From Alphaproteobacteria bacterium (GTDB lineage: Bacteria; Pseudomonadota; Alphaproteobacteria; UBA6615), in contig CBDHEC010000056.1 in NCBI GenBank assembly GCA_965261975.1, positions 96,001 through 160,000 of the forward strand: a DNA stretch of 64,000 nucleotides, in the 5' to 3' direction. The translations under genes were made by a program, and so were the position numbers. Below, piece after piece: positions 6,953 through 9,861 of the stretch. The notes under the pieces were generated by a model. It was not told the DNA's origin and ran no database searches. It worked only from the letters and a program-made list of their open reading frames with translations. The first letter of the stretch is position 1. Each line of letters opens with the position of its first letter.

Positions 6953-7477
6953 ATGGCACGCACATTCCGTCGTGTGGTCACGGGCCACAACGCCGCCGGC
7001 AAGTCGATCATCTGGAAGGACGGTGATGCCCCCCAGACCATCGAGCCATTGCCGGGCCTGTTCCTGCACGAATATTGGGAGACGACGGCACCCGCCGACA
7101 ACACCGGCGAGACGGACACGGCAATTCGTGAGAATTCCATCGAGCCCCATGATCCCAACGGGACGATTTTCCGGGTCGTCGATTTCCCGCCTGACGAGGC
7201 CTGGAAGGGGGCCGACGTCGGCGCGGCCTTCGACGAGATGGGCTCGGGCGCGGCCCATGACGGTGATTCCGAGACGGATGGCATGCACGAGACCCAGACG
7301 ACCGATTTCGCCATCGTGCTCGAGGGCGAAATGTGGGCGGTCATGGAGGAGGGCGAGACTCTCCTGAAGGCGGGCGACGTGCTGGTCCAGCGCGGCACCA
7401 ACCACGCCTGGTCGAACCGGTCGGGCAAGAATGCCGCGATTGCCTTCGTGCTGATCGGCGCGAAACCGCGGAGCTAG
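6953..7477 (+). CDS. cupin domain protein
   Basis: RRVVTGHNAAGKS N-terminus; MHETQTTDFAIVLEGE...GDVLVQRGTNHAWSN cupin motifs; GGAGG SD before ATG 6953. Confidence 0.88.
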   Translation: MARTFRRVVTGHNAAGKSIIWKDGDAPQTIEPLPGLFLHEYWETTAPADNTGETDTAIRENSIEPHDPNGTIFRVVDFPPDEAWKGADVGAAFDEMGSGAAHDGDSETDGMHETQTTDFAIVLEGEMWAVMEEGETLLKAGDVLVQRGTNHAWSNRSGKNAAIAFVLIGAKPRS

Positions 7478-7481
7478 CCGA

Positions 7482-7874
7482 ATGACCGCAAAACTCCGAC
7501 ACTTTGCCCTGTCCGTTCCTGACCCCCAGAAGGCTGCGGCGTTCTATGAGAATGCGCTGGGCATGACCCGGGTGGGCGAGAACGACCATCCCGGCGCCAC
7601 GGCGGTGTATCTCACCGACGGCACGGTCAATCTGGCATTGCTGCGCTACAAGACCGAGGAGGCCGCGGGCGGCGACCCGGAAAAGTTCGGCGTGCATCAC
7701 TTCGGTTTCATCGTCGATGACGTCGAGGCCGCCCAGGGCGAGATCGAGGCGGCGGGCGGCAACTGGCTGATGGGCGAGGCGAAGGACGCGGGCGCGTTCT
7801 ACGAGATCAAGTACCGCGACCCGGACGGGGTGATCTTCGACATCAACGAGGGCGGCTGGAAGACGGAGGGGTAG
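7482..7874 (+). CDS. VOC/glyoxalase family protein
   Basis: LRHFALSV...FYENALG, GVHHFGFIVDD and YRDPDG motifs. Confidence 0.88.
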   Translation: MTAKLRHFALSVPDPQKAAAFYENALGMTRVGENDHPGATAVYLTDGTVNLALLRYKTEEAAGGDPEKFGVHHFGFIVDDVEAAQGEIEAAGGNWLMGEAKDAGAFYEIKYRDPDGVIFDINEGGWKTEG

Positions 7875-7888
7875 GGCGTTTGGATGCT

Positions 7889-9487
7889 CTAGTTGATGAA
7901 CTTTAGCCCAAACAAGATCTTCAATATCTTTTGAACATTTTTTCTACAGGCATCTACATCTGCGTCTGAGACAGTAGTACTTGCTCGTTCATGTATAATT
8001 TTGTTTCTCATTTCATAATAGTGTTTGGCTTTTTCTAGTAATTCATCCGGAATATCTATTTTTGACGATACTTCTTTTATTACTTTGTGACGGCTTTTAA
8101 ACAAATCCCTGATTCGACCATCGGAGTATTGCTGCTGTGGAAAGAGGTCAGATCGGTGGACTATGAACTCTTTGAGAGAGATTTCGAAATTGCTGTCGAG
8201 CAAAATTAACGACATCCGGTTTCTGGTATCAAATTTCTACCTTGAAACGACATCCACAGCGCCAATTGCTTCAATGAGACCCAGTGTCCAAGGCATCTTG
8301 TCGAGCTGCTTTTTATTCTTTTCCCTCAGGTGTTCGATCTGTTGTTTTCTTACCTTCGGTAGAGGTGGAAGGCTGATTTTCTGACTATTTGTTATTTGAG
8401 CTTTTGGGATTTTTGTAATCTTACCTTGCGTGTGTCTAAACACCTTGGCGTCCCACTCATGCTTAAGTCGCCGTGAGAGTTTTGAAAAATGAGCTACGAG
8501 TTGGATAAGGGTTGGTCGTATTTTTTGGAATGCAAGGTGATCGTAGTTGATCCCATTCTTGCTGCTGTTCCAGGGCATCAAAATGGCTGGCCCTTCTAAC
8601 CTCACGATAACGCGGCACAGAGAAGCATCGGGATGAGGTACTCCTGCCTCGGAAGTAACAAAATATCCCACTTCTCGTGTTCTCAGTTCCTTAACTATCA
8701 TCCTATTGTTACAATAAAAGTAAACGCCATAATTGTCTGCATCTGGTTCACGGTCTTTTATTAGGCCAGCAGTAATATCGGCTGTAATATGCTGACTATC
8801 ATTTAGAGGTATTTTGATTTTGCAGTTTTGAGGTGCGTATGACGGTGGGTAAGACCAGTTGTCGTATTTTGTTTTTTTTATCTTTGTCCCATTTACGACT
8901 AGGGAGCATTTTGAGCCGAGGAAGTGAGAGTATGTTTCACCCAAATGTCTAATAATCTCTGGTTCGTCGGACTCATCGAAAGTCTTTCTTAGGTTCGAAA
9001 TATGAACTTGTGTTGTGCCTGCAGAGAGATTTGGAATCTCGAATGCTGCGATTTCCCAGTCATTCGTTTCTAGCCAATCATCTTCGATATCTACTTGAAA
9101 ACTTGAGCCTGATTTAGGGCGCGTCTTAATCTGGATGGTGCGACCTAACGCAACTCCTGCTCGCTTACTCCCAACACCAAAAATTCCAATCGATTGAGCG
9201 TTCGGATCGTTGCCGCTGCCACCTGGCGCGACTAGGAGCCTCAGATCACTTTGTTTAACGCCCCCCGCATTGTCGGTTACGGTGATCGTCTGGTGATCGG
9301 AATCTAGTACTACATTGATCTCCAGTTTCTTCTTCTGGTTTCCAAGCAGCCAAATATCGAACGCGTTGTCGACTAATTCACACAGTCCAGTTTTTAGGTC
9401 GTAGTCAGCGATTATCGACCAAAACATTCTTTTTTCGGGAGTCGCATCGATCGGTGCAATTTCCGTTTTTCGAGTTACAGCATTCAT
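7889..9487 (-). pseudogene. MORC/GHKL-type ATPase fused to a C-terminal HEPN-like domain, interrupted by one in-frame TAG (8237-8239); AT-rich foreign gene
   Basis: GHKL motifs ELVDNAFD, DNAGG, GIFGVGSK and GTT; S5-like GVYFYCNNRMI. ORFs 8237-9487 and 7889-8215 share a frame, separated by TAG plus 7 sense codons. The C-terminal part has LILLDSNFEISLKE and RNKIIH (Rx4H). Confidence 0.75.
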
Positions 9488-9861
9488 GGGGGACCCCGAA
9501 CTTCAGTGCTGTGAAAGCGTTGCGATAGTAAGAACGTGAACACAACTTTATCGAGAGTTTCGATTCCTGAATATCCAGAGTAGGTCGTATTCGAGCTCCC
9601 ACCAACCCAAATTCCTCTAGCGAAAAGTGCTGCATCGGGCGTCGGCTGCGAGCGTCTCAGCCAATTCGATACCGGACACGAGGGCGCCGAAGGGGCCGTC
9701 TGGCGGATCGACGGAGAGCTTGCTCATACACCGATACTAACACCGACAGACACCGCCGGTTCGCCCCCCGAACTTCAACCTGTCGCCGGGCGTTTCCCTG
9801 TGTGGGGTGGTCGCGGTAGTCTGGTGCCAACAAACAAGATTACCTCCCGGGAGTAAAGTTG

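Follow-up and report, generated by a model that had tools for sequence, protein, structure and literature searches.

A MORC-like GHKL ATPase fused to a HEPN domain: a candidate stand-alone anti-phage family with an interrupted copy in an alphaproteobacterial genome

Introduction

Can a single gene, lying alone among metabolic genes, encode a complete anti-phage system? The question is raised by a gene on the minus strand of a 64,000-nucleotide stretch of DNA from an Alphaproteobacteria bacterium (lineage UBA6615; assembly GCA_965261975.1, contig CBDHEC010000056.1, positions 96,001 to 160,000), hereafter called the window, to which all coordinates refer unless another record is named. A preliminary description, made from the letters of this DNA alone, read the gene as a fusion of a MORC-type GHKL ATPase with a HEPN ribonuclease (RNase), interrupted by a TAG codon, and suggested that dimerisation of the ATPase could switch the RNase on when a phage is sensed. 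We report here that the gene belongs to a family of such fusions, for which the best explanation, and in our judgement probably the right one, is a module of conflict or phage defence that stands alone and belongs to the abortive-infection type, and that the copy carried by the window is broken.

GHKL/MORC ATPases act in the immunity of plants and animals. GHKL ATPases with an S5 domain dimerise through their N-terminal domains upon ATP binding, and HEPN RNases require a dimer to form their composite Rx4-6H site. In PrrC and RloC, a fused ATPase silences a HEPN anticodon nuclease until infection is sensed. Tiamat offers a bacterial case of a GHKL ATPase in immunity, and the coupling of the clamp to its effector is poorly understood.

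Architecture of the protein

The interrupted frame and its parts are as follows.

7889..9487, minus strand: whole interrupted frame of the GHKL-S5-HEPN protein, 532 codons plus stop, from the listing of open reading frames (ORFs) and read-through
8918..9400, minus strand: GHKL (Bergerat-fold) ATP-binding domain, residues ~30-190, motifs I-IV
8453..8905, minus strand: S5-like transducer, residues ~195-345, with the invariant K310 (8558-8560) and the loop EAGVPHPDASLCR
8297..8452, minus strand: basic, proline-rich linker, residues 346-397, from the alignment, the secondary structure of the model and its predicted local distance difference test (pLDDT)
7892..8296, minus strand: predicted HEPN domain, residues 398-532, interrupted beyond its first helix
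8237-8239, minus strand: in-frame TAG at codon 417, falling between the first and second helices of the HEPN domain
7991..8008, minus strand: RNKIIH, the Rx4H putative catalytic motif of the HEPN domain

The two minus-strand ORFs 8237..9487 (416 residues) and 7889..8215 (108 residues) share one frame, and reading through them gives 533 codons, in which the stop at codon 417 and the terminal stop are the only two. A word-indexed protein search scored 8000 candidates, of which 1543 had E ≤ 0.001. The best 119 beyond the window's own ORF are 511-596 residues long, 54-62% identical to the read-through, and cover 96-100% of it. Uninterrupted homologues of about 530 residues thus exist, and since these 119 are full-length single proteins, the uninterrupted fusion is the normal form. 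Members bear only the source names 'ATP-binding protein', 'histidine kinase', 'anti-sigma regulatory factor' or 'hypothetical'.

All motifs quoted in the preliminary description lie in the translation where it had placed them, namely ELVDNAFD at residues 37-44, DNAGG at 72-76, GIFGVGSK at 101-108, GTT at 157-159, GVYFYCNNRMI at 254-264, PWNSSKNG at 305-312, LILLDSNFEISLKE at 427-440 and RNKIIH at 494-499. The residues named below are invariant in the 119 homologues, and the motifs are not there by chance.

The N-terminal part was called a GHKL ATPase, and this call stands: Pfam HATPase_c_3 matches residues 30-149 (E 1.3e-8, 35.4 bits for a cut-off of 25), HATPase_c reaches 30.1 bits (cut-off 26.4), and the four superfamily motifs, I (ExxxN), II (DxGxG), III (the G-rich lid) and IV (T), are all present. 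The ATP-site residues E37, N41, D72, G101, G104, G106, K108 and T159 are invariant in 119/119 homologues. An AlphaFold2 model of the whole protein, built from a 120-sequence alignment, has a mean pLDDT of 84.8, and Foldseek relates it to MORC2, MORC3, MORC4 and Hsp90/TRAP1 at E ~1e-13 to 1e-11. With VIA-align, the top ten rows are all MORC2/3/4 (Z 19.7-20.9, root-mean-square deviation (rmsd) 3.4-3.9, 280-311 residues within model residues 16-372); the best is MORC2 9cdh_B, with Z 20.9 and rmsd 3.5 for 309 residues over model residues 23-372, and below the MORC rows come SMCHD1 (19.6), topoisomerase VI-B (18.6) and Hsp90 (≤18.5). The family profile searched against PDB sequences finds MORC3 (E 6e-4) and HtpG (8e-4) best. 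From these fold and profile matches, the N-terminal ~345 residues are a MORC-like GHKL domain followed by an S5-type transducer, as had been supposed. The Pfam MORC S5 model was not among the matches listed for the window protein at E ≤ 1. Besides the fold matches, the MORC/paraMORC type of GHKL-S5 module is indicated by the conserved basic residue K310, which is invariant in 119/119 homologues and is the putative phosphate-sensing residue.

The loop EAGVPHPDASLCR (residues 280-292, 8612-8650 on the minus strand) is invariant or nearly so in the 119 homologues, and the model has very low confidence there (pLDDT <50 at residues 278-286). It may be a flexible functional loop serving sensing, catalysis or an interface; we know of no counterpart in MORC or Hsp90.

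When modelled alone with AlphaFold2, the C-terminal 135 residues form six helices with a pLDDT of 93.7. A VIA-align search of this model against 48,161 PDB representative chains placed AF_0298 first (2hsb; Z 11.9, rmsd 2.5, 114 residues aligned), followed by SO_3166 (5yep, Z 11.4), HI0074 (1jog, 11.0) and Csm6 (6tug, 11.0), and lower down by 1wwp (10.6), the HEPN domain of sacsin (3o10, 9.9) and the HEPN toxins 8xdj and 7ae2. HEPN or Csm6 is named in the titles of 7 of the 13 top rows. Beyond 1wwp and 2hsb, we take the fold matches to be HEPN/DUF86 proteins. Table 1 of Anantharaman et al. (2013; PMC3710099) places these two under HEPN-T. Two caveats attach to the fold assignment: Foldseek gave no PDB match to the HEPN model at E ≤ 0.001 (best E 0.3), and helical bundles can reach Z ~13 through their arrangement alone, as VIA-align itself warns. 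The HEPN profile had no meaningful match among PDB sequences.

The sequences of the family nevertheless point to HEPN. HEPN_RiboL-PSP (PF18735) matches 10 of 43 family C-terminal domains, with a best E of 2.7e-6; the window's own C-terminal part does not reach this model, and a few members match HEPN_MAE_28990, HEPN_LA2681 or HepT-like models. The Ymh model PF09509 was listed for none of the 43 at E ≤ 1, in a search where HMMER drops most matches above ~0.1. D431, E435, K439, E440, H489, R494, N495, K496, H499, E500 and R501 are invariant in 119/119 homologues, and the R and H of the Rx4H motif are kept in 43/43 C-terminal rows, including members only 33-37% identical, which read RCxLxH. The all-helical fold thus goes together with a conserved Rx4-6H motif (R494-x4-H499), as a HEPN domain should have, and the C-terminal domain is predicted to be a HEPN RNase domain of a RiboL-PSP-like branch. 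It begins near residue 398, since a second, shorter architecture described below retains its PWxxG first helix, and this start puts the TAG of the window inside the domain. We regard the domain identities, taken together, as almost certain.

Spread and turnover of the family

Loci were collected by a scan of one genome per species, 185,579 species in all, with two peptide patterns; 80 of the 83 loci obtained were retained. They fall in Pseudomonadota, Acidobacteriota, Verrucomicrobiota, Bacteroidota, Chloroflexota, Armatimonadota, Elusimicrobiota, Actinomycetota and KSB1, and a single archaeal locus comes from one Thermoplasmatales. The spread is patchy: in the class of the window, the gene is present in 1 of 400 other sampled genomes. 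Gene GC content lies below that of the flanks in 74/78 loci, by 0.096 on average. A quick maximum-likelihood tree of 59 intact loci and the window, leaving out 20 loci that are broken or cut by a contig end, mixes phyla; its well-supported clades join Bordetella with Pseudoxanthomonas and Trinickia, and a gammaproteobacterium with an acidobacterium. The tree does not settle the position of the window copy, and the row closest to it shares 59% identity.

Decay is common in the family. Of the 80 loci, 60 appear whole and 3 run into contig ends; the other 17 carry frameshifts, internal stops or truncations, which makes 17 broken copies among 77 assessable loci, although some of the frameshifts may be assembly errors in metagenome-assembled genomes. 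Isolate genomes are among the broken copies, namely Afipia broomeae (L031), Brevundimonas naejangsanensis (L065) and Paraflavitalea (L070). At L038:116-1066, an IS30-type transposase (HTH_38 + rve) abuts a copy without its first ~75 residues, which looks like inactivation by insertion.

Gene neighbourhoods

Does the gene work with a partner? The preliminary description had seen no methylase or partner gene beside it, and indeed there is none among the metabolic neighbours in the window. An all-against-all comparison of the ORFs within 5 kb at the 80 loci likewise revealed no conserved partner: the gene itself and its internal antisense ORFs aside, the largest cluster, HsdM, occurs in 4/80 loci.

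Up to two nearest ORFs per side, called by a home-made script (n=288 from 80 loci), were compared with the PADLOC models at E ≤ 1e-10. Sixty of the 288 match, in 36/80 loci. As a control, 144 ORFs were drawn from the 234 lying at least 6.5 kb from the gene in the same loci, and 14 of these match, in 12/69 loci (Fisher test per ORF: odds ratio 2.4, p 0.004; per locus: 3.9, p 4e-4). Such distal ORFs make a conservative control because defence islands extend that far. The matched neighbours include Gabija GajA + GajB, SIR2 + HerA, Septu PtuA, pAgo, Dsr1, DrmD, SoFic, PbeC/Dnd, several PDC candidates, and genes of type I, II and IV restriction-modification (R-M) systems; Pfam gave the same picture for 144 neighbour ORFs of the first 38 loci. 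The family is therefore associated with defence islands, an enrichment that had been proposed as a check on its function, and we consider a role in defence to be probable.

Two loci show the gene within type I R-M genes. At L003:5717-13853, hsdR, hsdS, the GHKL-HEPN gene, hsdM and a NERD-domain gene follow each other on one strand with gaps of a few bases. L002:5095-16062 carries hsdR, a gene of no assigned name, hsdS, the GHKL-HEPN gene, a PD-T4-2_A/NsnA-like gene and, further on, hsdM.

One could therefore wonder whether the protein is an accessory of DNA-directed restriction, in which DNA would be the target of the clamp, working with R-M enzymes encoded nearby or elsewhere, and the task of the HEPN domain would be nucleic acid binding or regulation instead of cutting RNA. 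MORCs and paraMORCs of prokaryotes were inferred to act within R-M systems (Iyer et al. 2008; PMC2292703, in its accessible part), and L002, L003, L015, L026, L029 and L059 lie in or beside type I/II R-M or Z1/DUF4420 genes. However, no R-M gene is conserved as a neighbour, the best cluster being that of 4/80 loci, and the HEPN motif, in which R, N, H and E are all invariant, speaks for catalysis. We judge this explanation unlikely.

The locus in the window

How did the gene come to lie among metabolic genes, and is it still functional there? Two further features describe its site.

7875..9628, strand not applicable: low-GC inserted segment of ~1.75 kb holding only the GHKL-HEPN gene, from same-genus alignments and GC content
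9629..9727, minus strand: remnant of a native TauD/TfdA-like gene (our reading of the sequence), 33 codons from its start, where MSKLSVDPPDGPFGALVSGIELAE parallels the start of the gene in G002 and G004

The gene had been described as AT-rich between GC-rich metabolic genes, and the figures bear this out: GC content is 0.37-0.50 in 300-nucleotide intervals from 7750 to 9699, against 0.61-0.73 in the flanks. On the left lie radical SAM, YCII, cupin and glyoxalase-family genes, the last ending at 7874; on the right come an amidohydrolase from 9859, a major facilitator superfamily transporter and a GT2 glycosyltransferase. The window's own genome and 30 relatives were searched, and 10 other genomes of the genus carry both flanks. 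All ten align to 7000-7874 and resume at ~9756-9849 up to 10400, and in none of them is 7875-9755 matched. In 8/10, merely 33-121 bp separate the two flanks.

The remaining two, G002 and G004, carry a 283-residue gene at the site of the insert (L089 in G002; L090:883-1734 in G004), and G004 additionally a 240-residue membrane ORF. We read this gene and its 33-codon remnant as a TauD/TfdA-like dioxygenase, on the strength of their sequences; the 33-residue piece has no Pfam match. The remnant runs from 9727 down to 9629, which sets the right edge of the insert at 9628, and since the window keeps only the first 33 codons of the native gene, ~1.75 kb of foreign DNA has replaced the body of that gene. 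The 283-residue gene is altogether missing from the eight other same-genus genomes. Being full in two genomes and absent from eight, it marks the glyoxalase-amidohydrolase intergenic site as variable in the genus.

We found no convincing terminal repeats around the insert; a 12-nucleotide direct repeat (9494/9766) and the 8-nucleotide GGGCGTTT at both edges may be due to chance. The non-coding flanks of the gene share no sequence with other family loci, and the window's genome holds no second copy. The locus is a single-gene cassette gained by horizontal transfer.

The cassette does not encode a complete protein. In the aligned homologues (n=119), the column of the TAG holds Q in 111, S in 3, H in 2, L in 2 and K in 1, so that CAG to TAG is the simplest history. 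Reading the TAG as sense, which had been suggested for the translation, finds no support: none of the 44 transfer RNAs (tRNAs) found by ARAGORN in this genome, 94.6% complete, has a CTA anticodon. The 416-residue product would keep only the first helix of the HEPN domain, and the 108-residue ORF lacks that helix. With a near-invariant Gln replaced, no amber-suppressor tRNA, and 17/77 relatives broken too, the window copy is most likely a recent pseudogene arisen by a CAG-to-TAG nonsense change inside the HEPN domain. A scan for promoters and terminators found no sigma-70-like promoter upstream of the ATG, the counts matching those of shuffled sequence.

It has to be set against a pseudogene that the TAG comes from a metagenome assembly of ~5.7x depth and from one re-assembly, which probably used the same reads. 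The only public DNA holder of the stretch is a contig set of mean depth 5.65, identical to the window and probably the source of its assembly, and no RNA run is among the public holders. The gene might then be intact in the organism, the TAG being either an error made in assembly or consensus calling or else a minority allele in a metagenome bin of low coverage; that this is the single lesion in the frame, and that all catalytic residues are intact, would fit such a case. Yet a second assembly of that run gives the same base with no variant listed, and decay is frequent in the family, isolate genomes included. An intact gene is thus improbable.

Alternatively, the 416-residue ATPase and the 108-residue C-terminal ORF could be made separately and cooperate, since an ATG at 8215 opens the latter, which contains the Rx4H motif. 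However, with the HEPN domain starting near residue 398, the 108-residue product misses the core first helix (PWTLGL...), which is kept even in the sister architecture of ~240 residues; no Shine-Dalgarno-like sequence was seen by eye before 8215; and intact members are single ORFs in 60/77 assessable loci. We consider such a functional split very improbable, and retain the pseudogene. The window copy would then exemplify fast gain and loss, in which a one-gene insert replaced a metabolic gene and was itself knocked out by one base.

Proposed function

How could the intact members of the family act? We propose that the protein would be a dimer, in which the MORC-like ATPase clamp would sense a signal of infection, or of restriction that is failing. 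By being bound and hydrolysed, ATP would bring the two HEPN domains into an arrangement in which their Rx4H motifs build an active RNase, which would cut cellular or phage RNA and stop translation. This logic would be shared with the ABC-ATPase-HEPN anticodon nucleases PrrC and RloC. It is by analogy with them that we put forward ATP-gated RNase action, a close call on which we stop a little short of belief. The complete picture of a single-protein abortive-infection system, whose MORC-type clamp licenses the fused HEPN RNase and which in some hosts would be a PrrC-like back-up inside type I R-M operons, set off once restriction is disabled, is slightly more tentative again.

Several observations weigh against a role in defence. 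At 44/80 loci, the window included, no defence model matches the nearest ORFs, and four of the matching loci are doubtful (a sigma-70 factor taken for MzaA, an ABC transporter for mad3, a weak DndH and a weak DpdB/ThsC), which leaves 32/80. The ORF calls were home-made, and the control ORFs came from the same loci instead of being matched genome-wide. Finally, the family is nearly absent from plasmids, with 1 full-length match in 72,556 records, itself divided into two coding sequences, and no full-length match was found among 50,697 phage records.

The family might not be anti-phage at all. It could be a selfish element resembling a toxin, or an RNase that serves in stress or quality control and is coupled to a chaperone-like ATPase, as proposed for sacsin. 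Besides the 44 loci without defence neighbours, a weak match to the NCBIfam sacsin ATP-binding model (E 9.7e-6, 26 bits for a cut-off of 50) and the presence of the sacsin HEPN among the fold matches would suit this idea. On the other hand, MORC proteins and not Hsp90 lead the fold matches of the ATPase, and the family is rare and patchy, low in GC, subject to turnover and decay, and enriched beside defence genes. A patchy, low-GC, decaying and defence-adjacent gene fits a conflict gene better than a housekeeping gene, and we hold a function outside anti-phage conflict to be rather unlikely.

Comparison with known systems

By sequence, the family matches no system model of PADLOC 2.0.0, in line with the earlier remark that it is not a named system. 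Among 20 full-length members, two TmtA models each hit a single member (E 0.0022 and 0.0045) and no other model matched at E ≤ 0.01; for the two parts of the window gene, the matches were TmtA at 0.0016 and CARF_HEPN at 0.0015. Being absent from PADLOC 2.0.0, the family would extend the catalogues of defence systems. Our literature search found no study of it, and bioRxiv supplements such as the Tiamat GHL lists might include it. The accessible part of the DefensePredictor supplement contains HATPase and HEPN matches, none of which joins both in one protein.

The idea of a GHKL-HEPN fusion is older. Iyer et al. (2008; PMC2292703) defined, within R-M systems, prokaryotic MORCs and paraMORC1-5 that bear nuclease or TIR domains as C-terminal extensions; they also mention a sequence motif specific to MORCs by which these are told apart from paraMORC1-5. 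According to Anantharaman et al. (2013; PMC3710099), HEPN domains of the Ymh family are fused to paraMORCs, and the analogy with PrrC/RloC is proposed there. These fusions share with the present family the N-terminal GHKL-S5 module, the C-terminal HEPN with Rx4-6H and the occurrence in R-M neighbourhoods. They differ in that the HEPN here is not Ymh (0/43 for PF09509) and is nearest to HEPN_RiboL-PSP, the examples of 2013 being compared through Pfam and their description, and in that the gene here usually stands alone, without a fixed R-M partner. The idea put forward in the preliminary description is thus only partly new: the architecture class was predicted in 2013, and what had not been described before is the RiboL-PSP-like branch, the fact that the gene usually stands alone, and how broadly the family is spread. 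The family also allows the prediction of 2013, that GHKL-HEPN fusions work like PrrC/RloC, to be tested.

A parallel can be drawn with PrrC and RloC, which likewise hold an NTPase module and a C-terminal HEPN RNase in a single polypeptide; the ATPase here is GHKL/MORC-like whereas theirs is of the ABC type, with no sequence relation. The L003 copy, and similarly that of L002, has hsdS on one side and hsdM on the other within a type I R-M operon, a placement that we take to be the same as that of prrC inside its own type I R-M locus. The coupling of PrrC to R-M is described in the accessible part of Anantharaman et al. (2013; PMC3710099).

Tiamat is a further system to compare. According to the accessible part of its preprint (10.64898/2026.09.30.754977), a stand-alone GHL ATPase-DNase, TmtA, protects against phage, and HEPN is named there only for sacsin. 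TmtA and the present protein are both stand-alone, and both carry a GHKL-type ATPase at the N-terminus and a nuclease effector, putative in the present protein, at the C-terminus. However, the effector of Tiamat, as its preprint has it, is a PD-(D/E)xK DNase (NOV_C) behind a long DUF3684, while the protein here has 532 residues and a HEPN C-terminus. Neither DUF3684 nor NOV_C has a Pfam match in the window protein, and the TmtA models touch just ~70 ATP-site residues, at E 0.002-0.005 and in 1/20 members each. If our reading is true, Tiamat would not be the only case of GHKL ATPases that act alone in immunity, and the family would provide a second such route. Compact (~530 residues), partnerless and highly conserved, with invariant catalytic residues in both halves, it would be a clean model for the control of a nuclease by a MORC-type clamp.

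The eukaryotic MORC2/3/4 are the best structural matches over ~280-311 residues, with MORC3 the best PDB profile match, at 14-20% identity; the present protein has no CW, coiled-coil or chromatin-reader domains and ends in HEPN. To our knowledge, sacsin is the only well-known protein that combines GHKL-type ATPase modules with HEPN. It is built of Hsp90-like ATPase repeats, a J domain and a HEPN domain, and the present protein resembles it through the weak match to its ATP-binding model and the HEPN fold. Sacsin differs in being a giant multi-domain protein whose HEPN is of the HEPN-T type, and the catalytic motif is missing from the human protein (PMC3710099). If true, our reading would provide a bacterial counterpart of the GHKL-HEPN pairing otherwise known from animal sacsin.

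RiboL-PSP-HEPN (PF18735), the nearest sequence family of the C-terminal domain, has an RN..H type motif as well, and its proteins join HEPN to L-PSP or go with a ParB/DUF262 partner, without a GHKL ATPase. In the accessible part of the DefensePredictor supplement, PD-T4-2_B is annotated as RiboL-PSP-HEPN.

Sister architectures and mobile relatives

A HEPN-only profile searched against 1.84 billion representatives gave 532 clusters, 185 of them at E ≤ 1e-10. They comprise full-length proteins of ~515-536 residues with HEPN at ~390-530, many fragments, and the second architecture of ~230-263 residues. A search for longer fused forms (932-2660 residues) gave none at E ≤ 1e-10, a negative that the search tool itself rates as weak evidence. 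In the second architecture (P0195, P0202, P0204, P0215, P0236 and P0252), HEPN is N-terminal (hhalign probability 99.7%) and the C-terminal half of ~110 residues has no Pfam match; by eye it looks like a winged helix. In P0198 (452 residues), HEPN without its first ~30 residues is followed by RelA_SpoT, alarmone synthetase-like (Pfam E 6.7e-13), which may be a real fusion or a mis-called gene.

A 36%-identical copy lies on an R. leguminosarum plasmid (CP050515.1; L081, 7998-9564 of the locus), where it is annotated as two hypothetical coding sequences and appears to be split as well. Its neighbours are an AAA ATPase and endonuclease pair, DUF4365, SEC-C, a DNA methyltransferase and a 1400-residue AAA ATPase. 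In Pseudomonas phage PfAC20 (PP058144.1:301-1530), an 'ATP-binding protein' is 24% identical to residues 15-403, and phrog_20521, a phage family of unassigned function, resembles the GHKL-S5 half only (E 3e-20). Since these phage matches stop short of the HEPN domain, it is relatives of the ATPase half that travel on phages.

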